Shown piece by piece: positions 42,582-64,000 of a stretch of 64,000 nt of DNA. The position numbers and the translations under genes are program-made. The stretch's first letter is position 1. Every line of letters starts with the position of its first letter. The stretch covers positions 30,508 to 94,507 of the forward strand of contig CBDEUQ010000003.1 of the NCBI GenBank assembly GCA_965243325.1. Reading direction: 5' to 3'. Source of the DNA: Alphaproteobacteria bacterium (GTDB lineage: Bacteria > Pseudomonadota > Alphaproteobacteria > UBA7887). Under the pieces are notes generated by a model, which was not told the DNA's origin, ran no database searches, and saw only the letters and a program-made list of their open reading frames with translations.

Positions 42582-43131
42582 GGCCTTACCCTCCCTGGCG
42601 GCGCCCCCGGACCTTGCCGCCAAAGCCGCCGCGCCGCAAGACGCCGCCGCGGGAGCCCCCTGGACCCCGGATCGTCGCTCCGCTCCGTCCGGGGTGACAG
42701 GTGGGGGCGGGGTAGGCGCCGTTCATCCTCAACTGTCACCCCGGGCTTGACCCGGGGTCGCATCATACTGTAGCCAACTCCCGCCACCATCCGCCGTTCG
42801 GCGTCGAATGTATGATACAGCATTGTAATAGTTGACGATTTTCTGTCCTCCCCGGTTTCGCGGCCCTTGACTTGCCGCCAGATATCGCCTTCAATCGCCC
42901 CCGACTTGATGCCGCTCGCATACGGTTTGATGACTGGAATTCGCGGCAATTTTCGAGAGGGCGCGGCGAGCGCGCGAATCCCGGAAAACGCCCGTTCGGT
43001 CCCGCGGTGACGGAAGAGGAGGAAGAGGCCGGCGGCGGTTGGGGTGGATAGGCGGAGGCGGAGCCCGGAGTTGCCATCGACTTCCTCATCCTCGCCGTCC
43101 TTCGCACCAACGCCTTCGGGGAGAGAACACC

Positions 43132-44327: not shown

Positions 44328-45503
44328 ATGCAGCAGAGGACGATCTCCAACCGCTCCGTGGCCGCCATGACGGTCGAGCGCGACACGGTGTTCTGGGACC
44401 GGACCGTGACCGGCTTCGGGGTCCGGGTCTATCCGACCGGCGGCAAGGTCTACATCGCCCAGGCCAGGGGGCCGGAAGGGCCGAAGCGTGTGACGGTGGG
44501 CCGGCACGGCGTGCTGAATGCCGACGAGGCGCGCCAGAGGGCGGCGCTGATCGTGACGCGCATCAAGGCGGGCGAGGACCCGGTGCCGCTGCCGCTCGCG
44601 GCCCGGGCGAGGGCCAATGGGAGTCCGACCGTGGCCGACCTCGCGGCGCGCTATCTGGCGGATCATGTCGAGGTGCGGCTCAAGCCGCAGACGCGGGCCA
44701 AGACCCGCGGCGTGCTCCGCCGCCACATCCTGCCGGCCCTCGGCAAGCTGCCGGTGGAGACGGTGGAGCGCCGGCACGCGGTCGATCTGCACCGAGGGCT
44801 GAGCGACCGCCCGGTGACGGCGAACCGGGCGGTCAAGACGCTGGCGCACATGTACCGTCTGGGCGAAGGCTGGGGCCTGGTGCCGGCGGGCTGCAACCCG
44901 TGCCGGTCGATCGAGAAGTATCCCGAGCGCGGCCGCGAGCGCTTCCTGACCGACGCCGAGTTCGCCCGGCTCGGGCAAGTGCTGGACGACGCCGTGGACG
45001 CCGGCGCCGTCCCGCCCGTGGCCGCGGCGGCGATCCGCCTGCTGATGCTGACCGGCTGCCGCAAGGGCGAGGTGCTGGCGCTGCGCTGGACGGACGTCGA
45101 TCTCGACGCCGGCGAGCTCCGCCTGCCCGACGCGAAGTCCGGTCCCCGCGCGGTGCAGCTGCCGCCGCCGGCAGTGCGGCTGCTGGACACGCTGCCGCGC
45201 CGGGCGGGCAGCCCGTGGGTGTTTCCGGGCAGGGACCGGGCCGGGCGCTACAGCGCGGGCGGCCTCGACCACGCCTGGCACGCCGTGCGCGAGGCCGCGA
45301 AGCTGGAGGACGTGCGGATCCACGACCTCCGGCACAGCTTCGCTTCGAGAGCGCTGGCGCTCGGCGAGACCCTGCCGGTGATCGGCAAGCTGCTGGGTCA
45401 CAACGACATCGAGACGACCGCGAGATACGCCCATCTGGCGCAGGATTCCGTCCACGAGGCGGCGGAGAGAATCGCTGCCAGCATCGCGGCCGAGATATTG
45501 TGA
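44328..45503 (+). CDS. P4-type tyrosine integrase, second of a tandem pair
   Basis: Starts 11 nt after int1. FWDRTVTGFGVRVYPTGGKVYIAQ arm domain; HDLRHSFASRA...TARYAHL catalytic motif. Confidence 0.85.
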   Translation: MQQRTISNRSVAAMTVERDTVFWDRTVTGFGVRVYPTGGKVYIAQARGPEGPKRVTVGRHGVLNADEARQRAALIVTRIKAGEDPVPLPLAARARANGSPTVADLAARYLADHVEVRLKPQTRAKTRGVLRRHILPALGKLPVETVERRHAVDLHRGLSDRPVTANRAVKTLAHMYRLGEGWGLVPAGCNPCRSIEKYPERGRERFLTDAEFARLGQVLDDAVDAGAVPPVAAAAIRLLMLTGCRKGEVLALRWTDVDLDAGELRLPDAKSGPRAVQLPPPAVRLLDTLPRRAGSPWVFPGRDRAGRYSAGGLDHAWHAVREAAKLEDVRIHDLRHSFASRALALGETLPVIGKLLGHNDIETTARYAHLAQDSVHEAAERIAASIAAEIL

Positions 45504-47094: not shown

Positions 47095-47439
47095 ATGAGC
47101 GCGGCATTCGCGATTCCCCGCAACACGGCCTCGACGTTCCTCACCCATTTCTTCGGCAGCGGCCTCTCCGACGACACCTATGTCGTGGAGCGGTTCAAGG
47201 CGATGGTGGACGGCGACATCCGCCGTTGCGCCGACCGGCAGCCCGCGGCGAAGACGGGTACGACGAAGACGGGCCGGCGCAAGACGAAGGACGCCACCGT
47301 CACCCGCAAGGCGGTGCAGGATCTGCGTCCGGCCCGCACCGAGATCATCGTCTGCACCGGGCTCAAGACCCGGGGCGGGGTGCAGATCTGGGGCGACATC
47401 GCCTGCGGACTTTTCCACGACCGCAAGCAGAAGGGCTGA
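47095..47439 (+). CDS. hypothetical protein (114 aa)
   Basis: In-frame ATG inside longer ORF 46585..47439; no recognised domain. Confidence 0.35.
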   Translation: MSAAFAIPRNTASTFLTHFFGSGLSDDTYVVERFKAMVDGDIRRCADRQPAAKTGTTKTGRRKTKDATVTRKAVQDLRPARTEIIVCTGLKTRGGVQIWGDIACGLFHDRKQKG

Positions 47440-47548
47440 CGGCTCCCTTCCCGGACGTCCTGCCGGCCCGGCGTCCCCGCCTCGGGGGCCGGGGCAAGCG
47501 GCAGGGCGTCCTTCCCTCCGTTTCGGTATCGGCAGGAAGGGGGTCGCC

Positions 47549-48154
47549 ATGGCTCGACGCGACATCGACGAGCGGCTGGACAGGCGGCGGCGGCGCAACC
47601 TGGACCGCTACCATCGGCGCGTTGCCGAACGCCGGGAGCGCGGCCTGTGCATCAAGTGCGGCCAGCGCCCGCCCGCGCCGGAGCGCAGCATCTGCGCACC
47701 CTGCGGCGAGAAGGCCAGGGCCTCCGAGCGTGCCCGCGCCGCTCGGCTCCGGGCCGAGGGCAAGCCGGTGCGCGATCCCGAAGCCAGACGCTGGGCCGAC
47801 CGCGAGCGCGACCGCCGCCAGCACGCCGAGCGCCGGGCCGCCGGCATTTGCGTCAAGTGCGGCCGGGTCCCGGCGCTCCCGGAGCGGACCCAGTGCGGGC
47901 CTTGCGCCGAACGGCGTCTGGCCGCCGACCGCGCCCGTCACGCCAGAGCGAGAGCCGAGGGCAGGCCGCCGCGCAATTCGGAAGCCAGTCGACTGGCCGA
48001 CCGCGAGCGCTGCCGCCGCCGTCGGGTCGAACGCCGGGCGGCCGGGCTGTGCATCCGCTGCGGGACCCTCTCGCCCGAAGCGGGTCGGTCGATGTGCGAG
48101 CCCTGCCGCGACGACCGGGATTACACGGTCAACTGCACGCTCAAGATGCGTTGA
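47549..48154 (+). CDS. Arg-rich protein with 3 tandem Cys4 zinc-ribbon modules (family member 1)
   Basis: RBS GGAAGGGGG. Three repeats of ...ERRxxGLCxKCGxxPxxPERxxCxPC...: CIKCG...CAPCGEK, CVKCG...CGPCAER, CIRCG...CEPCRDD. Lacks the C-terminal domain of members 2 and 3. Confidence 0.6.
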   Translation: MARRDIDERLDRRRRRNLDRYHRRVAERRERGLCIKCGQRPPAPERSICAPCGEKARASERARAARLRAEGKPVRDPEARRWADRERDRRQHAERRAAGICVKCGRVPALPERTQCGPCAERRLAADRARHARARAEGRPPRNSEASRLADRERCRRRRVERRAAGLCIRCGTLSPEAGRSMCEPCRDDRDYTVNCTLKMR

Positions 48155-48658: not shown

Positions 48659-49117
48659 ATGGCCAGACGCCCCGCCGACGCCAAGACCCGCGCCCTCAAG
48701 GAGCATGGCTGCCTGAACCCGAACGCGGAGGCGGTGCGCGACGAGCTGTTCGTGTCCAATGCGTTCTTCGACCCGCGCGATCTGCTCCAGGTCAAGTACG
48801 AGATGCTGCGCCGGGTGCGCGAAGACGGCGTGCCAGTGAGCCACGCCGCCGCCAGCTTCGGCGTCTCGCGGCCGACCTGGTATCAGGCGCAGCGCGCATG
48901 GGAGGCCGGCGGCCTGCCGGGCCTGCTGCCGGACCGGCCGGGACCGCGCCGGCCCCACAAGCTCAGCGACGAGGTGGTCGAGGCGCTGCGGGCGGCGAAG
49001 AGCGAACGGCCGGAGCTGACCGCCGCCGAGATGGTCGAGCTGGTGCGCGACCGCTTCGGCGTCTCGGTCCATCGCAGCAGCATCGACCGCGCCCTGGCGC
49101 GGGGAAAAAAACGATGA
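48659..49117 (+). CDS. helix-turn-helix protein with IS630/IS481-type winged-HTH N-terminal domain (no DDE domain)
   Basis: …AASFGVSRPTWYQAQRAWEAGGLPGLLPDRPGPRRPHKLSDEVVEALRAA...ELTAAEMVELVRDRFGVSVHRSSIDRAL... follows the HTH-tnp pattern; only 152 aa. Confidence 0.55.
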   Translation: MARRPADAKTRALKEHGCLNPNAEAVRDELFVSNAFFDPRDLLQVKYEMLRRVREDGVPVSHAAASFGVSRPTWYQAQRAWEAGGLPGLLPDRPGPRRPHKLSDEVVEALRAAKSERPELTAAEMVELVRDRFGVSVHRSSIDRALARGKKR

Positions 49118-49419
49118 CGATGCACAACCCACCCTGCACCGCGCTCCCGGCGGCGGAGCCTTCGGCCTACGGACAGGGGTACGAACGGATGCGCCGTCAT
49201 GCCGTCGAGCCCGGCGCCGTCCACGACCGCCACGGAAGCGGCGTGGTGGCGTTGCGCGGCGTCGCGGCCTGGCTGCATGCCTTCGCCGCGCTGCCCGCCC
49301 CGCCGGCGGCCGCGTGCGCGGGGGCCGCGCCCGGGCCGTTGCCCACCGGGGTCGAGACGTCGGCGATCGACATTCTGATCGCCATGCTCAACGGCCATAT
49401 GGAAGGAAAGCCGGCATGA
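49114..49419 (+). CDS. hypothetical protein (101 aa), translationally coupled between the HTH gene and the serine recombinase
   Basis: ATGA overlap at both ends (49114-49117 and 49416-49419). Confidence 0.45.
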   Translation: MTMHNPPCTALPAAEPSAYGQGYERMRRHAVEPGAVHDRHGSGVVALRGVAAWLHAFAALPAPPAAACAGAAPGPLPTGVETSAIDILIAMLNGHMEGKPA

Positions 49420-51437
49420 GCAGCGCCCATCAGAAGGTGGATACGGGCCATCTGAGCCGCGATGCCTACTTGTACGTGCGCCAGTCAAGCCTGCAGCAGG
49501 TGTTCGACCATGGCGAGAGCACGCGCCGCCAGTACGCGCTGCGGGAGCGCGCCGTGGCGCTGGGCTGGCCGACCGAGAACATCGTCGTGATCGACCGCGA
49601 TCTCGGCCTCTCTGGCGCCGACAGCGACCGCGAGGGGTTCCAGCACCTGGTCGCCGAGGTCGGCATGGGCCGGGCCGGCATCGTGCTCGGGCTCGAGGTC
49701 AGCCGTCTCGCGCGCAACTCCACCGACTGGCATCGGCTGATCGAGCTCTGCGCGCTGAGCGAGACACTGATCCTCGACGAGGACGGCGTCTACGATCCCG
49801 TCGACTTCAATGACCGGCTCCTGCTGGGGCTTAAAGGCACGATGAGCGAGGCAGAGCTGCACATGATGCGCGCCCGGCTGCGCGGCGGGACGCTCAACGC
49901 GGCCAAGCGCGGGGAGTTGAAGCTTCCTCTGCCGGTGGGGCTGGTCTACGACCCGCTCGACCAGGTGGTGCTCGACCCCGACGAACAAGTGCAGCACGGC
50001 CTGCGCCTGCTGTTCGACACCTTCACCCGGACCGGCTCCGCGCAGGCCACGGTGAAGCACTTCAACAGAGAGAAGCTGCTGTTCCCCCACCGTCCTCTCA
50101 GCGGACCGCAAAAGGGCGAGCTGCATTGGAAGCGGCTGAAGTTCTCGCAGGTGATCAACACGCTGCACAACCCGCGATACGCCGGTGCCTTCGCGTACGG
50201 CCGCACCCGGCGCCGCCGGCGGCCCGGCGGCGGTGTCGAGCACAGGCGCCTGGCGCGCGAGGAATGGACGGTGCTGTTGCGCGACGCGCACCCGGGCTAC
50301 ATCACCTGGGAGCGGTTCGAGGAGAACGAACTGCAACTCCGGAACAATGCGCAATCCTACGAAGCGAAGCGCCGCAGCCCCCCGCGCGAGGGACCGGCAC
50401 TGCTGCAGGGCCTGGCCATCTGCGGCGTCTGCGGCCGGAGCATGACGGTCCGCTACCGCACCCGTAAAGGACGGCAATATCCCGATTATGTGTGCCAGAG
50501 AGAAGGGATCGAGACAGCGAGCGGCAGCGTGTGTCAGGGCGTATCGGGCGGCGCCATCGATCGCGCGGTCGGCGAGCTGCTGGTGGAACTGGTGACACCG
50601 CTCACGCTGGACGTCGCGCTCCAAGTGCAGAACGAGCTCACGGCCCGCGCCGAGGAGGCCGATTTATGGCGTTCCCAACAGGTGCAGCGCGCCCGCGAGG
50701 AAGCGGACTTGGCGAGGCAACGGTTCATGCAGACCCATCCCGACAACCGGATGGTCGCCGACGTGCTGGAGGCGGAATGGAACGCGAAACTCCGGGCCCT
50801 GGACGAGGCGCAGCACGAGCTCGATCGCAGCCGCGCCGAGCCTGACCGGGGGTTGGACGATGAGCAACGAAAGCGAGTGCTTGAGCTGGCCAGAGACTTC
50901 CCCCGCCTGTGGAACGATCCGGCGACGCCGCACCGCGAGCGCAAGCGGATGGCGCGGCTGCTGATCGAGGACGTGACGCTGACCAAGGCCACGCGGAGCC
51001 TGGGAGTGCGCCTGCGCGGCGGCGCGACCAGAGAGCTCATCTGGACGCCGGATCCACGCGTGTATGAAATCCGCAGGACCAGCGATGAGATCGTTGCCGA
51101 GATCGACAGGCTGTTGGATGACCACACGGATGGCGAGATTGCGTCGATCCTCAATACGCGCGGATCCCGAACCGGGCATGGCCATGCCTTTACCCCGAAG
51201 CTGGTGACAGCAACCCGCCACAATCGGTCTCTCAGGTCACGCTACGAGCGGCTTCGCGATCGTGGGCTGTTGACGATCCATGAGGCCGCCGACCGGCTCA
51301 CCGTCTCGATCCGCACCATCAAAAAATGGCGCAGGGCCGGGCGTCTGCGCGGTTATGCCTACAACGACAGACCGGAATACCTGTTCGAGGTTCCCGATCT
51401 CCCGCCGACCAGGCAGGCAAGTCGATGCGGCCCGTGA
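49416..51437 (+). CDS. large serine recombinase (resolvase/invertase N-domain, recombinase domain, zinc ribbon, coiled coil)
   Basis: N-terminal YLYVRQSSLQQ...S...Q (catalytic Ser), ...GLKGTMSEAELHMMRARLRGG..., zinc ribbon LAICGVCGRSMTVRYR...YVCQ..., long C-terminal coiled coil; 673 aa. Confidence 0.85.
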   Translation: MSSAHQKVDTGHLSRDAYLYVRQSSLQQVFDHGESTRRQYALRERAVALGWPTENIVVIDRDLGLSGADSDREGFQHLVAEVGMGRAGIVLGLEVSRLARNSTDWHRLIELCALSETLILDEDGVYDPVDFNDRLLLGLKGTMSEAELHMMRARLRGGTLNAAKRGELKLPLPVGLVYDPLDQVVLDPDEQVQHGLRLLFDTFTRTGSAQATVKHFNREKLLFPHRPLSGPQKGELHWKRLKFSQVINTLHNPRYAGAFAYGRTRRRRRPGGGVEHRRLAREEWTVLLRDAHPGYITWERFEENELQLRNNAQSYEAKRRSPPREGPALLQGLAICGVCGRSMTVRYRTRKGRQYPDYVCQREGIETASGSVCQGVSGGAIDRAVGELLVELVTPLTLDVALQVQNELTARAEEADLWRSQQVQRAREEADLARQRFMQTHPDNRMVADVLEAEWNAKLRALDEAQHELDRSRAEPDRGLDDEQRKRVLELARDFPRLWNDPATPHRERKRMARLLIEDVTLTKATRSLGVRLRGGATRELIWTPDPRVYEIRRTSDEIVAEIDRLLDDHTDGEIASILNTRGSRTGHGHAFTPKLVTATRHNRSLRSRYERLRDRGLLTIHEAADRLTVSIRTIKKWRRAGRLRGYAYNDRPEYLFEVPDLPPTRQASRCGP

Positions 51438-51473
51438 CGAAAGCCGAAATCTGCCCCGGTGTTCGACGGAATA

Positions 51474-52355
51474 ATGGAGGTGCAGTATGCAGCATGCTTC
51501 CGGCGGGCCGCGAAACGCCTGCGCCGCGCCGAGCGCCGGGCCGCCGGCCTCTGCGAAACCTGCGCGGCGCCCGTGACCGGCAGGGCGGCCTATTGCGACT
51601 CCTGCGCCGCCGCCCGGAACGAACGGCGGCAGCGCAATCCGGAGCCGGCGCGCGAGGCCGACCGCCGACGCTATGCCGAGCGGCGCAAACGGGGCGACTG
51701 CACGAGCTGCGGCAAGCCGGTCCAGGGGACGGCCGAGTGCCGGACGTGCCGCGACGCTCACCGGGCACGCTACGACTCCCGCCGGGCCGCCGGGGTCTGC
51801 GTCAAGTGCCGGACCCCCACCGACGGCGGCGCGGCCTACTGCGATCCCTGCGCCGCCGCCAAGGCCGCGAGCCGCGACCGCGACCGCGCGGCGGAATACG
51901 CGGCCAGGCGCCGGCGGTATGCCGAACGGCGGGCGAAGGGGCGCTGCGTCGCGTGCAACGCGCCATCGCCGGACGCGGCGCGCTGCAAACCTTGTGCGGC
52001 CGTCAACGCCGGGCAGCGTGATCGTGAGGCGGAGAAAGCCGCCCGGCGCCGGCGGTATGCCGAGCGGCGGGCGAAGGGACGCTGTGTCGAGTGCGACGCG
52101 CCGTCGCCCGGGGCGGCGCGGTGCGAGCCCTGTTCCCTCCGGCACCGCGAGCGCTCGGGAGCGTTCCGCGGCATCCCGCTATGGGACCCGAGCTGGACGG
52201 TGATCGAGATCGCCACCGGGGTCTGTCACGGCACCTATGACAGCGAGATGGAGGTCGCGGCCTGTCTCGCCTTCGCCAGGCTCTCGCGCGACGAGGTCGA
52301 GGTGATCGCCGACGCCAGCCCGATGGCGGGTTTCATTGCGCCCGGTTGGCAGTGA
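51474..52355 (+). CDS. Arg-rich protein with 5 tandem Cys4 zinc-ribbon modules plus a conserved C-terminal domain (family member 2)
   Basis: Repeats RRRYAERRAKGRCVACNAPSP.AARCKPC... (the last two nearly identical at DNA level), then C-terminal ...FRGIPLWDPSWTVIEIATGVCHGTYDSEMEVAACLAFARLSRDEVEVIADASPMA... Confidence 0.6.
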   Translation: MEVQYAACFRRAAKRLRRAERRAAGLCETCAAPVTGRAAYCDSCAAARNERRQRNPEPAREADRRRYAERRKRGDCTSCGKPVQGTAECRTCRDAHRARYDSRRAAGVCVKCRTPTDGGAAYCDPCAAAKAASRDRDRAAEYAARRRRYAERRAKGRCVACNAPSPDAARCKPCAAVNAGQRDREAEKAARRRRYAERRAKGRCVECDAPSPGAARCEPCSLRHRERSGAFRGIPLWDPSWTVIEIATGVCHGTYDSEMEVAACLAFARLSRDEVEVIADASPMAGFIAPGWQ

Positions 52356-52425
52356 TGAGCGGGGAGATCCCTGCTGCGTCGCCGGCCCGCCGCCCGCAAT
52401 TCAGCACGACAGGAAGGACACCGCG

Positions 52426-53574
52426 ATGACCGCGAAGGACATCGACACGCTGCGCGCCGAATATCGCGAACGCTACCACCGCCGCACCGCCGAGCGCCGT
52501 TCGAAGGGCCTCTGCGTGCATTGCGGCGAGCGTCCGCCCAAACCCGGCCGCAGCCGGTGCGAGCCGTGCGCGGCCAAGAAGCGGCCGGCCCACCGCGCCC
52601 GCTACCATCGCCGCACCGCCGAGCGCGTCGCGCGGGGGCTCTGCCCGAAATGCGGCAAGCGCCCGCCCGCGCCGGAGCGCAGCCAGTGCGCGCCCTGCCT
52701 GGAGAAGGACGCCGCCGCCGGCCGGGCCCGGGACGCGAGGCTCAGGGCCGCCGGCATCCCGCGCCGCGATCCGGCCAAGGCCGCCGAGTACGAGCGCGGG
52801 CGCAACCGCCGCCGGGCCGAGTACCGCCGCGCCAGGGGGCTGTGCGCCGCCTGCGGCAAGTCCCCGCCGGCGCCTGGCCGCGTGTCCTGCGAGCCGTGCC
52901 TGGAGACGCGCCGCGCGCAGGACCGCGCGAAATACGCGGCCGGCAAGGCGGCGGGCAAGCTCTACGGCGGGGCCGATCCCGAGGCTTGCCGCAAGGCCGC
53001 CCGCGCCCGCAGCCGGCGGCGGAGGAAAGCCTGGATCGAGGCCGGGCTCTGCGTCCGCTGCGGCGCGACACCGGAGGTCGAGGGCAGCACGAACTGCGAG
53101 GCCTGCAAGCAGAAAAGCCGGGCCAGGGGCCGCCGCAAATACGCCGAACGGCGCGCCGCCGGGCTCTGCACCAAGTGCGGAAGCCCCGCTTTCGACGGCC
53201 TGGCCTATTGCGGCGCCTGCGCCGCCATCCGCGAGGTCCAGCGGCCGCCGGAGGTCAAGAACGCCCAGTCCCGGCGGCGATACGCCGAACGGCGCGCCCG
53301 CGACCGGTGCACCGACTGCGGCGCGCCGTCCCAGGGCGCCTCGCGCTGCGTGCCGTGCGCGGAACGCTCGCACCACCGCTCGACATACTTCAAGGGCATC
53401 CCGATCTGGGACCCGAGCTGGACCGTGATCGAGATCGCCACCGGCGAGGCGCTCGGCACCTTCGACAGCGAGGCCGACGTGGCGCTCTGCCTCGCCTTCG
53501 AGAAGCTGGCGCGCGACCAGGTCGAGGTAATCGCCGACATCAGCCCGATGGCGATGCACACGAGCTGGACCTGA
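52426..53574 (+). CDS. Arg-rich protein with 7 tandem Cys4 zinc-ribbon modules plus the same C-terminal domain (family member 3)
   Basis: RBS AGGAAGGA; repeats ...RRTAERxxxGLCxxCGxRPPxPxRSxCxPC...; C-terminal ...FKGIPIWDPSWTVIEIATGEALGTFDSEADVALCLAFEKLARDQVEVIADISPMA... shared with member 2. Confidence 0.65.
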   Translation: MTAKDIDTLRAEYRERYHRRTAERRSKGLCVHCGERPPKPGRSRCEPCAAKKRPAHRARYHRRTAERVARGLCPKCGKRPPAPERSQCAPCLEKDAAAGRARDARLRAAGIPRRDPAKAAEYERGRNRRRAEYRRARGLCAACGKSPPAPGRVSCEPCLETRRAQDRAKYAAGKAAGKLYGGADPEACRKAARARSRRRRKAWIEAGLCVRCGATPEVEGSTNCEACKQKSRARGRRKYAERRAAGLCTKCGSPAFDGLAYCGACAAIREVQRPPEVKNAQSRRRYAERRARDRCTDCGAPSQGASRCVPCAERSHHRSTYFKGIPIWDPSWTVIEIATGEALGTFDSEADVALCLAFEKLARDQVEVIADISPMAMHTSWT

Positions 53575-54457: not shown

Positions 54458-54573
54458 TGGAGGTGGAGGAGGGCTTGGAGAAGGTGAGCGGCGGGGGGCC
54501 GGGGGGAGAGATCGTCCCGGCTTCCCGTCGTTCGCAAACCATCGTCAGAATCCTGAGCCACAAGGAGATAGCA

Positions 54574-55041
54574 ATGGCTTTCGGAAAGAACTACGCGGAA
54601 ATCGTCGGACACCTCGGCGGCGATGTCGTCATCAACCATCTCGCCTCGGGCGGGCGCGTCGCGAACTTGAGCGTGGCGACCGACGAGTCCTATTTCGACC
54701 GCGCCGGCCAGAAGGTCGACCAGACCGAGTGGCATCGCGTCGTCACCTTCCAGGACGGGCTGATCGACATGCTGGAGCGGCACGCCAGGAAGGGCCGGCT
54801 TATCAGCGTCGAGGGCAAGCTGCGGACGCGGCGCTGGAAGAAGGACGGCGACGACTCCTGGCGCTACTCGACCGAGATCCTCGTCGTGCCGGGCGATCGG
54901 GTCCAGTTCTACGACAAGCCGAACCGCGCCAACGGCAACGGCGCCCAGGCCGAGCCCGCTCCGGCGAACGGCGAGGCGATGCCGGCCGGCGGTGACCCTG
55001 CACAGGCCGACGACCTCGGATCGGATCGTATCCCCTTCTGA
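54574..55041 (+). CDS. ssb: single-stranded DNA-binding protein
   Basis: OB-fold N-domain (…WHRVVTFQDGLIDMLERHARKGRLISVEGKLRTRRWKKDG...), Gly/Pro/Ala-rich linker and acidic tail ending DDLGSDRIPF. Confidence 0.8.
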   Translation: MAFGKNYAEIVGHLGGDVVINHLASGGRVANLSVATDESYFDRAGQKVDQTEWHRVVTFQDGLIDMLERHARKGRLISVEGKLRTRRWKKDGDDSWRYSTEILVVPGDRVQFYDKPNRANGNGAQAEPAPANGEAMPAGGDPAQADDLGSDRIPF

Positions 55042-56138: not shown

Positions 56139-57068
56139 ATGAACATCATCGAGAACATCGACACCATCGAAGCCGGCGGGCAGTCCGCCACCGCGACCGC
56201 CTGCGAGCACGCTGCCCTCTTCGGCGCGACCCCCGAGCGGGACGAGTTCGACACCCGGGACGTCTGGGACGCCGACGAAGCGATCTGCGCCATGCAGGAA
56301 GCCTTCGGGCTCCTCGCCGACGCCGTCGCACCGGACGGGTTCCAGCTCGCCGACGAACGCGAGAGCCTGCTGTGGGGCTTCGTCAACATGCTCGACGCCC
56401 AGACCAACCGCCTCGACCGCGCCGCCGACAAGCTGATGCCCGAGCTGCGCGATCTCCAGCGCGAGCAGGACGGCACCGAGATCAAGTCGTTCGAGCTGGA
56501 ACTGAAGACCGACCGCGCGCAGAACCTCACCGCGCGCCGCGATGCCTTCGAGACCCTGCGCGACGCAGCCGCCGAGAGCTACCGCGACGCCACCGGCACC
56601 ACCTGGCGGCCCCGGCGCGGATCGCACGTCTCGCAGACCGGCACGCTCACCTCCGCCGCCATCGACGCCCGCGACTTCGCCCGCGCGAGGCAGGACCGCA
56701 AGACCGCCGCGCACCTGCCGCAGGGCACCCTGGTCGCCATCGCGGGCGGCAAGGACGTGACCGACCCCGGCGCGGTGATCGACATGCTCGACAGGACCCG
56801 CGCCAAGCACGCCGACATGGTGCTCGTCCACGGCGGCGGCCCCGGCGTCGAGAAGATCGCCGCGCGCTGGGCCGAGCGCAACGGCGTCCACCAGGTCGTC
56901 TGCAAGCCGGACTGGGACCGCCACGGACGCGCCGCCCCGTTCCGCCGCAACGAGGAACTGCTCAACCTCCTGCCGAAGGGCGTCATCGCGTTCCCCGGCA
57001 GCGGCATCACCGAGAACCTCGTGGACCGCGCGCGGCAGCTCGGCATCCCAGTCTGCCGCGCGAGCTGA
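56139..57068 (+). CDS. DUF2493 (SLOG / DprA-LOG-like Rossmann) domain protein with an uncharacterised N-terminal region
   Basis: C-terminal ...LVAIAGGKDVTDPGAVIDMLDRTRAKHADMVLVHGGGPGVEKIAARWAERNGVHQVVCKPDWDRHGRAAPFRRNEELLN...VIAFPGSGITENLVDRARQLGIPV matches DUF2493. Confidence 0.55.
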   Translation: MNIIENIDTIEAGGQSATATACEHAALFGATPERDEFDTRDVWDADEAICAMQEAFGLLADAVAPDGFQLADERESLLWGFVNMLDAQTNRLDRAADKLMPELRDLQREQDGTEIKSFELELKTDRAQNLTARRDAFETLRDAAAESYRDATGTTWRPRRGSHVSQTGTLTSAAIDARDFARARQDRKTAAHLPQGTLVAIAGGKDVTDPGAVIDMLDRTRAKHADMVLVHGGGPGVEKIAARWAERNGVHQVVCKPDWDRHGRAAPFRRNEELLNLLPKGVIAFPGSGITENLVDRARQLGIPVCRAS

Positions 57069-57857
57069 CCGCAGCGTCTCGCGGGCCGCGTCGTCATCCC
57101 CGGCAACGGACGATGGCGGCGCGGCCCGTTTTCGCGTGCGCACATCGGGGCTGCGGCCACGCTCCCCCTCGCGCGCGCTTTGCGCGACGCTCGTGCTCCG
57201 GCTCGCCGCGCTCGCCGATCGCCGGTGCGTTCGCTGCCGCTCGCACCGATGCGCTCGCGCTGCGCCTCCCGCCGTCGGCTCCGCCGACCCGCCGGTCGGC
57301 AATCGCGTCGTCCGCCTTCGCACCACGCTTCGCATGAGTGCTTCGGCTACTGCGCCGATCATCGTGCACGACACGATGCACGGCGTCGGCGCTGGTGACC
57401 ATGATTGCGATCATCGCGCGCGTCGCCATTGCCGGCTTCGCCGTCATCAGCCTCCGCAGTCGCGGGCGTGCTCGTGCAGCGCCCGCCGCCGATGCCGCCG
57501 TCACCGCGCTCGACACTTCGTCCCTCCGTCGTGTCGCCGACGATGCCCACTCAAGCGCCGTGGCGGCTCCGATCCGCCGCTCTCGCCGGCTCCGATTCCC
57601 CATCGAAAATACTGCCCCGTTCGGCTCTGTCTCTACGGCGGAGCCGGCGATTTCTCACACCTGCCGCAGACTTCTGCATTGAGCGAGCCCTGACCGGCCT
57701 TCCCGATAGAACGATTTCCGTCGTTGTTTCAGACCGTTAGGCGCAATCCCGCCTGACCCGCGATCCCGCGCGCGGTCCCCGTCTCCTTCCTCAAAACGCC
57801 GTCCTTGTTCCCTGCGAACGGGGCTGCATCCGAGGGAACAGACCGGGAGACCGCGCC

Positions 57858-59009
57858 ATGCGCATCTACGCCACCGTCAACGACCGGACCGCGCGCCGAA
57901 GTTTCAGGGAACAGAAACACCGCAAGCGCCCGCTGACCGTGCTGGACCATACGCTGCCCGCCTTCGGCTTCAACATCGCCGCCGACGATACGCGGACGTA
58001 TTTCGTCCGTGTCGTCCGCAAGCTGGGCGCGGACAACATCGCCCTCGGCAAGACCACGGAAACGACCGCCAACGAGGCGCGGGCGAAGGCCGTCACCGAG
58101 ATCGAGGCGGCGCAGGTCGAGCGCAAGGCCGGGCCGCTGATGCGCGACTTCGCCGACGAGTTCATCCGCCGCCGCGCCCATCGCTGGAAGCCGTCCACCC
58201 GGAAGAGCAATCTTTACCTGCTGGGGCGATACATCCTTCCCCCGCTTGGCGGACTGCGGGTCGCGGCGATAACCCGCGCCGACGTGCGGCGCTGGTTCGA
58301 TTCCATGAGCGGCACCCCCGGCGTCGCCAACCGCACCCTGCCGGTGTTGTCGTCGATGATGACCGCCGCCGAGCTTTGGGATATCCGGCCCCAGGGCTCC
58401 AATCCCTGTCGCAACATGCGCCGCTACAGGACCGCCCCGCGCGAGCGCTTCCTGTCGGCGGACGAGTTGAAGCGCCTCGGCTTCGTGCTCGACCACGCCG
58501 AGGACCGGCAGGCCGCCGCCGCGATCCGGCTGCTGCTGTTCACCGGGGCGCGGTCGTCGGAGATCGCCGGGCTCAGGTGGGACTGGATACGCGAGACCCG
58601 CGCGGTGCTGCCGGACTCGAAAACGGGGCCGAAGACGATCCAGCTTCCCGCGCCCGCGCGGGCCGTGCTCGCGAGCCTGCCGCGCGATGGCGCGTTCGTA
58701 TTTCCCAGCCGGAAGGGCGACGGGCCGATGGCCGACCTTGCCAAGCGCTGGCTCAAGCTCCGCGCGCTCGCCGGGCTGGAGGACGTGCGCATCCATGATA
58801 CCCGCCACACATACGCCTCCCATGCGGTGATGGGCGGCCTCGACCTCTACACCGTGGGCCGGTTGCTGGGCCATGCCGATACCGGCTCGACCGAGCGCTA
58901 CGCCCATCTTGCCGACGGGCATTTCCGCGAGGCGGCGGGACGGATTTCCGGGATCGTCGGTGGTGCGCTGGCCGGTGGCCGGAAGCGGGAGGCGGATCAT
59001 GGCGAATAG
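57858..59009 (+). CDS. tyrosine integrase with a divergent N-terminal arm region, first of the second tandem pair
   Basis: Catalytic domain with HDTRHTYASHA...TERYAHL; the N-terminus (MRIYATVNDRTARRSFREQKHRK...) is atypical or shortened. Confidence 0.75.
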   Translation: MRIYATVNDRTARRSFREQKHRKRPLTVLDHTLPAFGFNIAADDTRTYFVRVVRKLGADNIALGKTTETTANEARAKAVTEIEAAQVERKAGPLMRDFADEFIRRRAHRWKPSTRKSNLYLLGRYILPPLGGLRVAAITRADVRRWFDSMSGTPGVANRTLPVLSSMMTAAELWDIRPQGSNPCRNMRRYRTAPRERFLSADELKRLGFVLDHAEDRQAAAAIRLLLFTGARSSEIAGLRWDWIRETRAVLPDSKTGPKTIQLPAPARAVLASLPRDGAFVFPSRKGDGPMADLAKRWLKLRALAGLEDVRIHDTRHTYASHAVMGGLDLYTVGRLLGHADTGSTERYAHLADGHFREAAGRISGIVGGALAGGRKREADHGE

Positions 59010-60183
59010 GACCGGGAAGACACGGCTCAAGGTCGCGGCCATCGCCGCCGCGAGGCCGAAGGCGCGCGAATACACGCTCTGGGACGGAACGCTCAGGAGC
59101 TTCGGGCTGCGGGTCCAACCCTCCGGCGCGAAGTCGTTCATCGTCCAGACCCGCGCGCGGGGCCGGATGCGCAAGATCACGCTCGGGCGATTCCCGGACA
59201 TGAGCCTCGCCGACGCGCGCACGGAGGCCGCCGCTGTCCTCGCCCGTATCTGGGCGGGCGAGGACTTGGCCCCGCCGCGCAAGGTCAAGGCCCCCGTGTT
59301 CCGCGACTTCGCCGCGCGCTACCGGGAGCGGCGCAAGGACGTGTGGAAGCCGTCCTCGCTGGAGACCTTCGACATCTACATGCGAGGTCGGCTCCTGCCC
59401 GCCTTCGGACGGTTCAAACTCGACACCATCGACCATGCGCGGGTCTCGGCGTGGTTCGATGCGGCGAGCGAGGAGCGCCCCGGCGCGGCCAACCGGGCGT
59501 TCGACATCCTGCGCGCCATGCTCAAGACCGCGCGGCAGTGGGGCGAACTCGGCGAGCATGTCCCCGACGCCTGCGCCAATATCACGGTGAACCCGAAGAA
59601 GCCCGTCGCCCGCTATCTCGACAAGGACGAGATCGCCCGACTCGGCGCGGCGCTGGACCGGCACGCCGGGGACCGCCCCTGGCACGTGGCGGCGCTGCGC
59701 TTGCTGGCGCTGACCGGGGCGCGGCTCTCCGAAGCGGTCAACCTGCGGTGGGACGAGATCGCCGCCCTGTCCGAAGACGGCGCGAGCGCGCGCATCGAGG
59801 ACTCCAAGACCGGCCCGCGCACGATCTGGCTCGGGCCGGAAGCGGCGAAGCTGGTGGCGGCGCTGCCGCGCACGGGAGGGGCGGAGCGCGTGTTTCCCGA
59901 AAACCTTACCACGTCGAGGCTCTACGACTTCTGGTGCCGTGTCCGGGAGGAGGCGGGGCTGTCCGGTCTCCGCATCCATGACTGCCGCCACACATGGGCC
60001 TCGCAGGGCATCATGAACGGCGTGGGTCTCCCCACCGTCGGGCGGTTGCTCGGACACAGGCGGCTGGCCACCACCGCGATCTACGCCCATCTCGACGACA
60101 ACGCCTTGCAGGCTGCCGCCGAGAAGGCGGCGAGCCGAATCGCGAAGGCAATGGGGTTCGAAGCCGAGCCGTCACCGCTATAA
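58999..60183 (+). CDS. P4-type tyrosine integrase, second of the second tandem pair (overlaps the previous gene by 11 nt)
   Basis: …LKVAAIAAARPKAREYTLWDGTLRSFGLRVQPSGAKSFIVQ... arm domain; HDCRHTWASQG...TAIYAHL catalytic motif. Confidence 0.85.
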   Translation: MANRTGKTRLKVAAIAAARPKAREYTLWDGTLRSFGLRVQPSGAKSFIVQTRARGRMRKITLGRFPDMSLADARTEAAAVLARIWAGEDLAPPRKVKAPVFRDFAARYRERRKDVWKPSSLETFDIYMRGRLLPAFGRFKLDTIDHARVSAWFDAASEERPGAANRAFDILRAMLKTARQWGELGEHVPDACANITVNPKKPVARYLDKDEIARLGAALDRHAGDRPWHVAALRLLALTGARLSEAVNLRWDEIAALSEDGASARIEDSKTGPRTIWLGPEAAKLVAALPRTGGAERVFPENLTTSRLYDFWCRVREEAGLSGLRIHDCRHTWASQGIMNGVGLPTVGRLLGHRRLATTAIYAHLDDNALQAAAEKAASRIAKAMGFEAEPSPL

Positions 60184-60209
60184 CGGAGATACGCGAGACG
60201 GGCATCACT

Positions 60210-60554
60210 TCAGGCCCATCCGCCATCGTTCAGGCCCCAGCGCTTGATCCAGTCCCAAGCTTTCCGTTCGCCCAATAGCGCCTCCAGCGCCGCCATTTCG
60301 GCGCTGCAACCCAGCGAGCGGCTGTTTTCCTCGTTGTGGCCCTCGCCAGCGGCGCGGGTGCGCTCGGCCTTGCCGACAGCACGCGCATGGTCCTGCGCCC
60401 TCTTGAGCACGTCCATTGCGCCTGCCATGACAGCGTGGCGGATTTCTCCGGCTTGCGAGCGGGCAGGCGGTTTCTCCCGGTCAAGAAGCGCCTCGATGCG
60501 GGTGATCTCCCGCGCCAGGCCGCAGGTGCGGTCGTCGAGCGTCGGTTTCGGCAT
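60210..60554 (-). CDS. hypothetical protein (114 aa)
   Basis: Strong RBS GGAGGGGG upstream of the ATG; promoter region contains two palindromes. Confidence 0.45.
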   Translation of the reverse strand: MPKPTLDDRTCGLAREITRIEALLDREKPPARSQAGEIRHAVMAGAMDVLKRAQDHARAVGKAERTRAAGEGHNEENSRSLGCSAEMAALEALLGERKAWDWIKRWGLNDGGWA

Positions 60555-60569
60555 TATGCGCCCCCTCCA

Positions 60570-60616
60570 TTGGAGCATTTACTCCAAATAGAGTAATCTC
60601 AAATCCAATGCATTGG
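60570..60616. promoter_or_regulatory. pair of palindromic operator-like sites
   Basis: TTGGAGcatttaCTCCAA (60570-60587) and the perfect palindrome CCAATGCATTGG (60605-60616), directly upstream of the minus-strand gene 60210..60554. Confidence 0.4.
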
Positions 60617-60941
60617 CAAGCCGTTCAGCGAATTCGGCGCGGTTCATGGTACCCACGGGGGAAGAGACAAGAACTGGGTCGATTTTCGCCGTCTTCGCGG
60701 GCCGGTTCTGCGCTTCGCGCCTCCGGCATATGGACTTCCGAGCCGCTGTGCGCTAGTCGTCGCTTTACCACTGTCTTTCGGGTTCCCCGCTCTGTCGGGT
60801 CGCCCGCTGAATACAACAGCCTGACCCGGCAAGGGGTAGCTCCCCGCGCTTGGCGAATAGGCGGGAATCGTCTTTCCGAAAGATGGTGGTAACGGCCCGG
60901 CTCCCAGCCGTATCGGGAGCGATGATTGCGAGGGAAACACC

Positions 60942-62336
60942 ATGCGCATCGATTTTGTCCTTGCCTCTGCCGTGTTCATGGTTACCGCCTGCGGAGGTGG
61001 CGGAAGCGGAGGCAAGCTCGCCCAGATGACGCAACAGCCGGACGAGACTCCGGCTATGGTCGCTCCCACCAAAATCGCATTTGCTCCTTCCTCCAGCGGA
61101 CACTACAGGACGGACGGTCTGCCTGGACCGGCAATTTCCGACGCGAAATACATGCCAATCTATCGGGATGATGACCGTATTCTTGTCGGGGTCGAACAAA
61201 CTGCCAATTTTTTACGCAGCCTTCCAGTTATCGCCAAGACCGCGAGTGGCGCAGATATTCGATATGGAATTGTTGATGATGGCGCGGGCGGAAATATCGT
61301 CCGAGAATATCTCAATCAAGTAACCGATGTTCTATTTTCGCATATCGTTGGATTTGAATGGGACGGAAGACCGCAAGTAACTTATGGAGGACATGCATCT
61401 CCTGACGATGTGGAGCGTCTAATCCGTTCCATCCAGCTTGTGAACGTCGCTCTACCGGAATCGCGGAAAATGGAACTCCCTTCCGCGTCTCCCTATCCTT
61501 TGCCGCAAGGTCCCAACTCCGGCATTCATGTCTTTTTTCTCGATCCCGAAAATGATCCTGATTATTGGGGAATAACTTTCAACACGAGAAATGGAGATAC
61601 GCTAAAATCCAACATTTCCATCAGCGCGCATTACACCGATGCTGGTGATCGGCGAGCAACTATTCTACTGGCTCATGAGATTCTACATGCGTTGGGTCTT
61701 GGCGATCATGTTGCGGAATCCCACGATAGCATTTTGGAAGCGGGCAGGGGAATTTATGAGAGGCAACAGAACTCGCCGCAGCCATTGTCCTTGCTCTATA
61801 ACGAAGACCGCGAAGCGCTCCGGGGATTATACGATCCGTCACGATTGGGATCTTGGGCGAATACAGGTTTGCATATCGCCGGACACGGACAGCACACGGC
61901 CTTCGGCGTTGCGCTGCGCAACGGTTATGCCGAGCCATGGGCTTACGGCTATACGCCGAACAGCGACCTTGCCGATAATCGTAGCCTGTCCGGTTCGGTG
62001 AAATGGAGCGGCGAATTGCTCGGGTTGACCCCGGACGCGGCGGCTGTCGCGGGCGATGCTGCGATCAACGTCAATCTGCCATCCATGACGGGCCGGGCGG
62101 ACTTCACCAATCTTGAGACATGGGGCGGGAACACCGCGCCCGGCGCTGCCGGGAGCGGCGCGACATGGCTCGATGGCGATCTCGGCTATGGCATCGCCGT
62201 TCGCGGTAACACCTTCCGGGAGACCGGCGGCGATGACGGGCGCTTGACGGGCATATTCACCGGGCGCTCGCATGAAGGCGCGGCGGGTACGCTTGATCGC
62301 ACCGACCTTACGGCGTCGTTCGGAGCGTCGCGGTAG
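60942..62336 (+). CDS. lipoprotein with a zincin (HExxH) metalloprotease-like motif; lower GC than the backbone
   Basis: Lipobox MRIDFVLASAVFMVTAC; HEILHALGLGDH motif; Gly-rich beta-type C-terminal region ending ...TASFGASR. Confidence 0.5.
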   Translation: MRIDFVLASAVFMVTACGGGGSGGKLAQMTQQPDETPAMVAPTKIAFAPSSSGHYRTDGLPGPAISDAKYMPIYRDDDRILVGVEQTANFLRSLPVIAKTASGADIRYGIVDDGAGGNIVREYLNQVTDVLFSHIVGFEWDGRPQVTYGGHASPDDVERLIRSIQLVNVALPESRKMELPSASPYPLPQGPNSGIHVFFLDPENDPDYWGITFNTRNGDTLKSNISISAHYTDAGDRRATILLAHEILHALGLGDHVAESHDSILEAGRGIYERQQNSPQPLSLLYNEDREALRGLYDPSRLGSWANTGLHIAGHGQHTAFGVALRNGYAEPWAYGYTPNSDLADNRSLSGSVKWSGELLGLTPDAAAVAGDAAINVNLPSMTGRADFTNLETWGGNTAPGAAGSGATWLDGDLGYGIAVRGNTFRETGGDDGRLTGIFTGRSHEGAAGTLDRTDLTASFGASR

Positions 62337-62544
62337 CACATGATTTGTTTTGCCAGTCGTCCTGGCGCGTCGCAAGGGCGGCGGATGGCGTGGGCGCAGA
62401 AAGCCGCATTCGCCGCTCCCTGCTGAGCGCAACATGTAGACCGAAATCGAACGACACCGCTAAACGCCCTTCGCACGGGCTGGTCACGATCTACAAATCC
62501 TCTCGGCAACGGCCCGTGTTGCGCTGGACAGGTGCCATTAACAC

Positions 62545-63429
62545 CTACTCAATTGGAACAACGTTGAAATTTCCATCAAATCCCAGTTTTACCGCTGGCT
62601 CCTTCATGATCTTCAGGAAATTCTCCATTTCGTCACATTCGGCCAAGAGGTCATCTAGAATTTTCATGTAGTACTTCGACTTCTGACTCGCCACTTCGTC
62701 AGAAGCTGGTGCCTGAGAATTGATCTTTTCCTTGTACGAATTTATCCACGTGCGAACTATATCCAGATTACGCTTACACTTCTCGGGTTCAGAGATGTTT
62801 GCCCCGGCAACATTCGTCAATTGCTGAAAAGGAAACAGTACAGTTACTTCGCAGGTGGAATCTACCCTGGCCATTCTATCAAACATCTCTCCGACACATG
62901 AATCTGTTTCTTCTCGTATGTATCGCACAACCTTCGGATCGACTTCAACAAACGGCGTGGCTCCATCGTTCTCAGACATGCGGAACGCTCGAACTGACTT
63001 TTCTCCCGTTAGCGCATTCTGATAACCAGCGCCTATAAACTGTTCATCGCTGTGAAAAATGCTACCTCTTGTAATATAGCCTCGAACCATGACGCCGAAT
63101 TCCAATAAACCGATAATGGACTGCGATATGTGTTCAATCAGATTGATTATCCCCGCTGGGGAAATCTCCGTAGAGATGATGGCGCAGTCTGATATCTGTG
63201 TGACCCTGTAGTCCAAGTCGCGGCTTTCGTGCCGACTCTCGGGACAAATGATTGGTCCATAAGCAGCAATAGATTGAACATGTGACTTGGATTCCAGCTC
63301 TGCACAGATTGCAAGCAGATCGGTCAGGCGGTCGCCACTACCACCTTCGGCGGCTTCTACCTTGGATTTGAATCCAAGTATGTCCACAAAGGCCACGAAT
63401 TTATCGCGAAATTGCGGTTCGAACGTCAC
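62545..63429 (-). CDS. class III nucleotidyl cyclase-like (adenylate/guanylate cyclase fold) protein, low GC
   Basis: FVAFVDILGFKSKV (cf. hhFxDIVGFT), QISDCAIIST (cf. IGDxhhh), MVRGYITRGSIFH...FIGAGYQNALTGEKS (cf. RIGIHTGPV...GDTVNLASRLE). GC falls to roughly 45% by eye. Confidence 0.45.
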   Translation of the reverse strand: MTFEPQFRDKFVAFVDILGFKSKVEAAEGGSGDRLTDLLAICAELESKSHVQSIAAYGPIICPESRHESRDLDYRVTQISDCAIISTEISPAGIINLIEHISQSIIGLLEFGVMVRGYITRGSIFHSDEQFIGAGYQNALTGEKSVRAFRMSENDGATPFVEVDPKVVRYIREETDSCVGEMFDRMARVDSTCEVTVLFPFQQLTNVAGANISEPEKCKRNLDIVRTWINSYKEKINSQAPASDEVASQKSKYYMKILDDLLAECDEMENFLKIMKEPAVKLGFDGNFNVVPIE

Positions 63430-63442
63430 GGCGTTATTGTTC

Positions 63443-64000
63443 CTATCGTTTCAGTGGTACGGCGCTCTCGCTCATGGCCAGCAGCGTAGCGAGAGCTTCA
63501 TCCTCGGAAATCCCCGCTTCCCATCCATAGGCCGCAGCAACGGCGCCGTCCAGCGTAGCGTGCGCATCCGAGAGCCATTGCGGGCGGGTATTGTAGAGGT
63601 TCGTGAGCGTCCGGGCCTTGAGTTCCTTCGCCGCCGCCTCATCGCGCGCGACCGGGCGCTTCGGATAGCCTGGCGCCGGCTCGTCCACCCACTCGACCCA
63701 CTCCGGCGGGTTGAGCCAGCGGTCGCGGAGTTCCACCAGTCGCCGAGCGGCATCGGCTATGGCGACGGCGCGCGGCTCATCCGCGTAGTCGGCGGCGGGG
63801 ATGTTCGGCGAGAGACCGTCCGGGAAGGGGAAGGTCTCGAAGGTGGTGGTCGGCGTGTAGCGCGGCCGATCCTCAAGGCTGGTGCCGAGCCGAAGCGACC
63901 ATGCCTCGTGGAACCGGCTGTGCAGGATGCCGAAGGTCACATCGTCGTCGCGGGCGATGACGATCACTTGGCTGTCGGGCAGGACGCCCGCGTCGAGCCA
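63443..64000 (-). CDS. C-terminal part of a large SAM-dependent DNA methyltransferase (type IIG / PglX-like family); N-terminus beyond the window
   Basis: …ILHSRFHEAWSLRLGTSLEDRPRYTPTTTFETFPFP..., ...TLTNLYNTRPQWL...LDGAVAAAYGW... are blocks I associate with the C-terminal region of MmeI/PglX-type methyltransferases. The ORF is open to the window edge. Confidence 0.45.
   Translation of the reverse strand, partial: WLDAGVLPDSQVIVIARDDDVTFGILHSRFHEAWSLRLGTSLEDRPRYTPTTTFETFPFPDGLSPNIPAADYADEPRAVAIADAARRLVELRDRWLNPPEWVEWVDEPAPGYPKRPVARDEAAAKELKARTLTNLYNTRPQWLSDAHATLDGAVAAAYGWEAGISEDEALATLLAMSESAVPLKR

Follow-up and report, generated by a model that had tools for sequence, protein, structure and literature searches.

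A linked pair of arm-type tyrosine integrase genes beside a predicted core site in an alphaproteobacterial contig

A stretch of 64,000 nt (here called the window) from contig CBDEUQ010000003.1 of an alphaproteobacterial assembly (GCA_965243325.1, lineage UBA7887) was analysed for two overlapping tyrosine integrase genes, named IntA and IntB. Comparison with related loci strongly supported the two genes as a functional unit that is inherited as a block, consisting of a core site, a leader and the translationally coupled genes themselves. The pair would constitute a recombination module of two genes that occupies the left end of an integrative element, and the reading to which slightly better than even confidence is given, from sequence comparison and from analogy with known recombinases, is that both integrases act jointly on the one core. 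The coordinates of all features are collected in Table 1.

Conservation and domain structure of IntA and IntB

A scan of one genome per species with IntA returned 80 loci. Orthologues of IntA (60-88% identity) were present in 37 loci, and in 36 of the 37 an orthologue of IntB (59-76% identity) came directly after it on the same strand; in the sole exception, IntA itself was cut. The reverse relationship, in which an IntA precedes every IntB, was assessed on loci found via IntA, where every B-type gene was paired, and a metagenome scan with IntB alone yielded two short loci. More than 120 protein clusters matched IntA at ≥68% identity, with lengths mostly of 378-386 amino acids (aa). The hosts of the loci were metagenome-assembled genomes labelled as Alphaproteobacteria (many of them Rhodospirillales), Gammaproteobacteria, Binatia (Binatota), Bryobacterales (Acidobacteriota) and Pedosphaera (Verrucomicrobiota), and several single genomes harboured three to five copies of the pair.

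The junction between the two genes was compared in the 25 intact pairs. The genes overlapped by 11 nt in 11 pairs and by 4 nt (ATGA) in another 11, and were separated by 3 nt in three; a GGAG-type Shine-Dalgarno (SD) sequence for IntB was located inside the end of IntA in all 25. The overlap in the window is 11 nt long (ATGGCGAATAG, 58999-59009). The mechanical open reading frame (ORF) of IntB in the ORF listing opens at 58873, in a different frame from IntA, and the start of the gene was placed at the ATG at 58999 because a GGGAGG SD sequence precedes this codon and the orthologues begin at the same ATG. The ORF listing and the evidence for the IntB start thus confirmed the two integrase ORFs and the 11-nt overlap of the original prediction.

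The distance matrices of IntA and IntB were tightly correlated (Mantel r = 0.95, with none of 5000 permutations as high). Mean divergence was equal for the two proteins (0.265), and the median ratios of nonsynonymous to synonymous substitution rates (dN/dS) were 0.29 for IntA and 0.27 for IntB. Together with the co-occurrence in several phyla and the coupled junctions, these values uphold the earlier proposal that the pair is a functional unit and not a chance arrangement. The IntB orthologues varied in length from 376 to 485 aa; homology ends within the 3' part of the ORF, which leaves them with variable C-terminal tails.

In a neighbour-joining tree (no support values), the IntA orthologues formed an A-type clade with the upstream members of three remote pairs (L048, L054 and L060, with approximately 40% identity) and of the second L003 pair, and the IntB orthologues grouped with the downstream genes of L048, L054 and L060 in a B-type clade. 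As the members of the remote pairs fall in the matching A and B clades, the A/B pairing is old. A prophage or plasmid origin was rejected, since the databases contained no close relatives (best identity of 43% in PLSDB plasmids, 32% in INPHARED phages and 39% in IMG/VR) and no PHROG structural matches were found near the pair; a plasmid DNA search also gave no match.

Both proteins matched the Pfam family Phage_integrase (PF00589; E = 2.2e-18 for IntA and 1.6e-20 for IntB), and a SAM-like core-binding domain was detected in each. The IntA residues R232, K255, H313, R316, H339 and Y348 were invariant across 12 orthologues and aligned with their catalytic counterparts in the structure of the phage P2 integrase; no inactivating substitution was thus found at the R/H/R/Y positions, and the catalytic domain of the upstream member can be regarded as intact, as had been predicted. 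The IntB motifs ..GAR.SE, RIHD.RH, LGHR and YAH were invariant across 25 orthologues. Judged from these alignments, IntA and IntB both keep the complete R-K-H-R-H-Y catalytic set, which places them in the tyrosine recombinase superfamily. IntB also proved to be the standard P4-type integrase that had been expected, having, in addition to the SAM-like and catalytic domains, an Arm-DNA-bind_3 domain (PF13356; E = 4.1e-16, 59 bits against a cut-off of 27).

The N-terminus of IntA had been described as atypical and as standing in place of the usual DUF4102 arm domain. The first part of this description was retained, as Pfam gave no DUF4102 (PF13356) match at E ≤ 0.01, and only a sub-threshold one (15.7 bits, E = 0.017). 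The second part was not. A profile of 25 IntA N-termini aligned with one of 25 IntB N-termini in hhalign (96.9% probability, E = 1.4e-10, residues 18-84 against 17-83), residues 22-95 of IntA aligned with the IntB arm by tblastn, and several IntA orthologues score PF13356 outright in precomputed annotation. In an AlphaFold2 model of IntA (mean predicted local distance difference test score, pLDDT, of 85.6), residues 1-91 formed an N-domain in which beta strands lead into a long helix (pLDDT approximately 77-95), and the top structural matches of the model were full-length lambda integrase chains, aligned over approximately 370 columns. From alignments and model together, IntA is read as a three-domain arm-type integrase with a diverged DUF4102 homologue, an arm domain that has drifted from the Pfam model and is strongly conserved inside the IntA family. 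By the arm-domain criterion, IntA is a diverged member of the P4-type/IntSXT subgroup, to which IntB belongs directly.

Core site, leader and element ends

A core was located approximately 200 nt upstream of IntA in every related locus. Across loci, this motif is 32-34 nt long and has the form CACACCnnACGCA, 6-8 nt, TGCnnnGAGCGAG. Its inner parts are palindromic, and the two sides of the palindrome covary between lineages (GCACC/GGTGC, GCATC/GATGC and, in the window, GCAGA/TCTGC). The outer blocks, CACACC and GAGCGAG, are unlike each other and are each conserved. In the remote A/B pairs, the left block and the palindrome are kept at the same distance from the gene, and the right block is different.

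The core coincides with a boundary of homology. Copies of the pair in one genome share a unit of approximately 2.5 kb that begins at the core and stops at the conserved C-terminus of IntB. The sequence to the left of CACACC was unrelated host DNA in 12 of 34 loci, with the break exactly at CACACC. In 22 of the 34, the core was preceded by a conserved arm that carries the box CTCAnnCGCC..GG at a distance of 104-112 nt; these include the window, where the box CTCAAGCGCCGTGGCGG is located 106 nt ahead of the core and the arm aligns with the core-upstream sequence of L002, L004, L008, L010, L014, L015, L021 and L028. This box also precedes the right-end core of single-copy elements.

Both ends of an element were recognised in five relatives (L009, L012, L025, L011 and L083; Table 1), in which direct repeats of the core bound the element as in other site-specific elements; the window shows the left end only. 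The right-end copy is partial, with the left block and usually the palindrome but without GAGCGAG, and is followed by unrelated DNA. According to these alignments, the core marks the left end of elements of 4.3-11.3 kb, and a partial second copy marks their right end. The element in L083 is flanked by a PBP5-type carboxypeptidase gene and an amidohydrolase gene. The cargo of the relatives is located between IntB and a right-end module, and in many of them a Zn-ribbon-repeat protein, an SSB and a SLOG (PF10686) protein are encoded just inside the right end. The retention of the SSB-SLOG module at this position hints at the handling of single-stranded DNA. No Xis/AlpA-type excisionase was recognisable in the minimal element of L012, and no tRNA genes were found in the window or in 12 related loci.

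The right arms of the relatives carried four to six copies of GGTAAC within approximately 400 nt in four of the five examined, and two copies in L083. No GGTAAC repeats were found in the arm that precedes the core in the window (57069-57655), and this arm is therefore of a different type from those closing the IntA-IntB elements. It was enriched in CGGCTC (six copies against 0.9 expected) and CGGAGC (five copies against 0.7 expected).

The leader between the core and IntA contains a palindrome (57797-57830) for which compensatory changes were observed in 23 loci, at pairs 46/68 (CG in eight loci, UA in eight, UG in four) and 47/67 (CG in nine, UG in six, UA in five). An inverted pair, GTTCCC (57807) and GGGAAC (57834), is also present, and the GGGAAC after the palindrome could pair with the GTTCCC of the palindrome. 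The leader palindrome could be an RNA hairpin, an operator or a set of arm-type binding sites. A search of Rfam over 56.9-61 kb found nothing above threshold, and a scan for promoters and terminators gave no useful signal.

Two copies of the element at different sites of one genome (L007 and L009) had integrase modules that were 99.9% identical over 2994 nt. The remainder of these two elements was only 91-96% identical. This pattern suggests a recent exchange or conversion of the integrase module alone.

Table 1. Coordinates of the features in the window and of the element ends in five related loci.
Feature	Sequence	Position	Strand	Description
IntA	Window	57858..59009	+	383 aa; A-type tyrosine integrase; diverged DUF4102 arm, SAM-like core-binding and catalytic domains
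IntB	Window	58999..60183	+	394 aa; B-type tyrosine integrase; P4-type set of Arm-DNA-bind_3, SAM-like and catalytic domains
Coupling junction	Window	58987..59009	+	SD GGGAGG at 58987-58992 within IntA; IntB ATG at 58999; IntA stop TAG at 59007-59009
Core recombination site (predicted)	Window	57656..57687	+	32 nt, CACACCTGCCGCA GACTTC TGCATTGAGCGAG; 202 nt upstream of IntA
Leader (P' arm)	Window	57688..57857	+	170 nt; alignment of 31 loci; GGGAG SD ahead of IntA ATG
Right-end arm of preceding element ("P arm", type 2)	Window	57069..57655	+	Downstream of SLOG gene; box CTCAAGCGCCGTGGCGG at 57550-57566
Variable cargo start	Window	60184..64000		GC 0.53-0.63
MmeI-type restriction-modification fragment	Window	63443-64000	-	MmeI_TRD and MmeI_C domains; C-terminal part, continues past the window
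Zinc-ribbon-repeat paralogues (CxxC units)	Window	47180-48154, 51459-52355, 52336-53574		DNA repeats of 129 and 201 nt
Helix-turn-helix protein and 707-aa large serine recombinase	Window	48659-51437		Between zinc-ribbon paralogues, near GC dip at 48-49 kb
SSB	Window	54562-55041
SLOG/YspA-family protein	Window	56139-57068		PF10686
IntC	Window	43129-44316		First pair, 11 nt from IntD (tblastn)
IntD	Window	44328-45503		First pair
Fifth integrase	Window	2155 down to 1	-	N-terminus 2155-1829, C-terminal part ~530-1; split by IS110-family element
IS110-family insertion	Window	781-1851		Transposase; within fifth integrase
Element ends	L009	Left core 9798, right core 20869		11.1 kb
Element ends	L012	Left core 9798, right core 14084		4.3 kb; IntA, IntB and one 290-aa HNH-repeat protein
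Element ends	L025	Left core 9801, right core 19860		10 kb
Element ends	L011	Left core 9800, right core 21091		11.3 kb; another leader after it, a tandem neighbour
Element ends	L083	Left core 9803, right core 18086		8.3 kb; three insertion sequence (IS) copies inside

Proposed joint action of the two integrases and alternative readings

Integrases of the lambda/P4 class are single-enzyme systems in which the direction of recombination is set by a small excisionase. The dif site has symmetric inner parts and differing outer parts, which is the basis of the discrimination between XerC and XerD; the Xer proteins are without arm-binding domains. The IntA-IntB module shares with XerC/XerD, as a functional analogy, two paralogous tyrosine recombinases and a site of approximately 30 bp with palindromic inner parts and unlike, conserved outer parts. 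It was therefore considered that IntA and IntB might act together on one core, in the manner of XerC and XerD at dif. One integrase would recognise the CACACC half-site and its partner the GAGCGAG half-site, each would make one pair of strand exchanges, and the arm domains would bind repeats in the flanking arms and so assemble the recombination complex. Joint action on the core would account for the maintenance of two intact genes and for their stoichiometric coupling. In contrast to the Xer proteins, IntA and IntB carry arm domains and are encoded on a mobile element beside the site, and nothing points to FtsK control. Their scores with the NCBIfam models for XerC and XerD (TIGR02224 and TIGR02225) were 42-58 bits against cut-offs of 330-335, which places them outside the Xer families, and the score with the NCBIfam integron-integrase model was far under its cut-off.

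As 22 of 34 copies are located directly behind the right end of another element, resident attachment sites may be preferred targets. A more specific version of joint action, which is judged less likely than not, is that the pair constitutes an obligate heteromeric arm-binding recombinase of the lambda/P4 type, without a separate excisionase or a fixed target, which inserts preferentially into the attachment sites of its relatives and so gives rise to tandem arrays.

Several observations weigh against joint action or against the element as described here. Joint action is drawn from gene linkage and site asymmetry only. A frameshift or an insertion was present in one gene in approximately one third of the related copies, some of which may be assembly errors, and most of the relatives are metagenome-assembled genomes. 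The centre of the core (6-8 nt) differs between the left and right copies of one element, which is unexpected for a recent clean exchange, and the palindrome has a centre of 2 to 4 nt, depending on the lineage, so that a hairpin fits as well as two protein half-sites. A variable length of the core centre would be tolerable for a hairpin in single-stranded DNA, and the elements do carry an SSB. No conserved chromosomal target was found by comparing the flanks of box-less junctions, which showed no relationship to one another, and scanning for tRNA genes. A second copy of the core was not found in the window up to 64000 by regular expression or nhmmer, 60.2-64 kb included, and the element of the window has its right end outside this stretch.

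The main rival to joint action is a division of labour, in which one protein exchanges strands at the core and the other supplies architecture or directionality, is specialised for excision as against integration, or regulates the operon. The strong divergence of the IntA arm from the Pfam model makes it probable that IntA and IntB read different arm sequences. The absence of a recognisable excisionase from the L012 element would mean that directionality is supplied otherwise, and the conserved leader palindrome could be an operator. However, every catalytic residue is kept in both proteins across all intact orthologues, and the two evolve at equal rates and under equal constraint, whereas loss of the catalytic residues would be expected of a paralogue with a purely architectural role. 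That the core has two outer blocks, unlike and each conserved, also speaks against it, and a division of labour was judged unlikely.

The two integrases might also serve two sites, each having its own attachment site or target, which would allow alternative insertion sites or a two-step movement. Insertions in unrelated genomic contexts, the many copies behind other elements and the existence of at least three sequence types of right-end arm would all agree with this. It is nevertheless a distinctly improbable reading, as a single conserved non-coding site accompanies the pair, none follows IntB (where homology ends within the 3' end of the gene), and both ends of single-copy elements bear the same core type.

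Alternatively, the core could be a resolution or regulatory site within a single contiguous element comprising the Zn-ribbon, SSB and SLOG genes, the core, IntA and IntB, so that the pair would belong with the sequence to its left. The order from SLOG through the arm and core to IntA and IntB is indeed unbroken in the 22 loci with the boxed arm, the window among them. However, in L009, L012, L025 and L083 the pair begins at the core with unrelated DNA to its left, and the arm and second core are located to the right, again followed by unrelated DNA; with a contiguous element, two truncations would have had to occur independently in each such locus, both exactly at the core. In L011, moreover, the SLOG module is downstream of the pair, within one core-to-core unit. 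This arrangement is therefore very improbable and was rejected on the single-copy elements. Chance juxtaposition of two unrelated islands that met at one hot spot and decayed to their integrase genes would suit the commonness of tandem island arrays and the presence of several integrases in the window, but it is refuted, with a residual probability close to nil, by the conserved gene order across several phyla, the coupled junctions and the correlated distance matrices.

The IntA-IntB elements were compared with known systems. The arm, SAM-like core-binding and R-K-H-R-H-Y catalytic domains of IntA and IntB are those of P4-type/IntSXT integrases, and the location of the integrase genes at one end beside the attachment site, the direct core repeats and the short repeated arm motifs are shared with P4-type islands. 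Known P4/IntSXT islands have one integrase, usually a small excisionase, and a conserved target gene such as a tRNA gene (PMC8138268). The elements described here differ in having two linked and co-evolving integrases, with no tRNA or other conserved target found and no excisionase recognisable in the minimal element; the defining arrangement of a single integrase at a tRNA, tmRNA or housekeeping gene was not observed.

Elements that require more than one recombinase include RIT (ritABC), GInt (ginABCD), SE (intA-tfp-intB-srap) and the Tn554 family (tnpA, tnpB, tnpC) (PMC10214605; PMC3414803). Like these, the IntA-IntB elements are mobile and often multi-copy, and their recombinase genes form one operon in which short overlaps point to coupling. 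They differ in having exactly two arm-domain integrases of approximately 390 aa with nothing conserved between or after them, and ends formed by direct core repeats as against terminal inverted repeats. By gene content, they have no counterpart of Tfp, Srap, GinC or GinD, nor a long protein like TnpB. RIT elements have three adjacent genes that overlap, ritA, ritB and ritC (PMC3414803), and membership was rejected as only two genes are conserved here and homology between copies stops at IntB. SE and GInt elements have a four-gene core and imperfect terminal inverted repeats (PMC10214605). Assignment to them was rejected by gene order and ends, compared with the published descriptions, as IntB starts within IntA and no conserved gene follows it. 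The SEs have been reported in Gammaproteobacteria only (PMC10214605), whereas the IntA-IntB family spans several phyla. The Tn554 family has TnpA and a long TnpB (>600 aa), with or without TnpC (PMC3414803), a description that does not accommodate two proteins of 383 and 394 aa with the same domain build. The BIM arrangement, of one recombinase and an unrelated protein (PMC10214605; PMC3414803), was considered and also rejected. None of RIT, GInt, SE, Tn554 or BIM combines just two genes, both for arm-domain integrases, with ends formed by direct repeats. A full-text literature search for tandem or paired integrases did not find the arrangement described, with incomplete coverage, so that an earlier description elsewhere is possible.

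The IntA-IntB element is best filed as a variant within the tyrosine-recombinase integrative elements, with the heteromeric mechanism as a proposal. A coupled pair at an asymmetric core suggests that site asymmetry, and possibly directionality, may come from two paralogous recombinases, as at dif. If the heteromeric reading is true, this would be the first integrase system of the arm type to be heteromeric, and the elements would make up a class of their own among integrative elements with two recombinases. Long-read genomes of uncultured marine bacteria contain the family in abundance, often in multiple copies stacked in arrays. It therefore probably makes a real contribution to genome plasticity, and to the spreading of defence cargo, in these bacteria. 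For annotation, adjacent A-type and B-type integrases should be treated as one module and not as two islands. The minimal relative of 4.3 kb, with two integrases, one other gene and two ends, is small enough for direct testing.

Neighbouring elements, cargo and other integrases in the window

The block from 45.6 to 57.65 kb contains a DUF3800 gene, the Zn-ribbon paralogues, a nested serine recombinase, SSB and SLOG genes and the boxed arm. Compared with the ends of the relatives, this block reads as the right-hand part of a neighbouring element, with the core at 57656 as the junction. The element of the window would accordingly have been inserted at the right-end attachment site of this neighbour, and the low-GC DNA beyond IntB would be its cargo. 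The GC content falls from approximately 0.70 to 0.63, 0.53, 0.56 and 0.59 from 60 kb onward. This profile agrees with the lower-GC cargo noted earlier to the right of the pair, and a cargo on that side is consistent with the single-copy relatives, whose left end is formed by the pair.

On the minus strand at 62545-64000, the cargo includes, in addition to the restriction-modification fragment, a 294-aa protein with PHROG matches of unknown function only. At the start of the low-GC cargo, 60794-60909 gave a weak, sub-threshold match to sRNA-Xcc1 (26.8 bits against a gathering score of 53, E = 0.14). Within the left neighbour, the helix-turn-helix and serine recombinase genes look like a separate, nested element. 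At least the last two zinc-ribbon paralogues (51459-52355 and 52336-53574) share a C-terminal domain, and related elements have homologues of the zinc-ribbon proteins together with SSB and SLOG at their right end.

The first integrase pair in the window, IntC and IntD, had been described as mirroring the second, with one arm-divergent and one canonical member, and the pair as a unit repeated in two elements. Neither description was supported. Both IntC and IntD scored above the PF13356 cut-off. Their identity to each other was 48%, against 35-38% for all other combinations among IntA, IntB, IntC and IntD. In the neighbour-joining tree, in which the A-type and B-type clades were distinct, the IntC-IntD pairs (of the window, L072 and L074) formed a separate clade among single-copy P4-like integrases. 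Because of this separate clade and the low identity to IntA and IntB, the two pairings are taken to have arisen independently, so that integrase pairing, as judged from tree and identities, arose at least twice; descent of both pairs from one ancestral pair was rejected on the same grounds. A unique palindrome, TGTCACCCCGGGCTTGACCCGGGG, is located upstream of IntC (42734-42757). A second copy of it was sought in order to delimit the left neighbour, and none was found.

A fifth integrase at the left edge of the window is split by an IS110-family insertion. Any partner of this gene would fall to the left of the window edge. Its N-terminus was 54-58% identical to those of L048, L054 and L060, and by this similarity it is assigned as an A-type protein of the remote pair subfamily. 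The core of that subfamily (CACACGATCCGACGCACCTTCGGTGCTAAG) was present upstream of the gene, at approximately 2258-2290.

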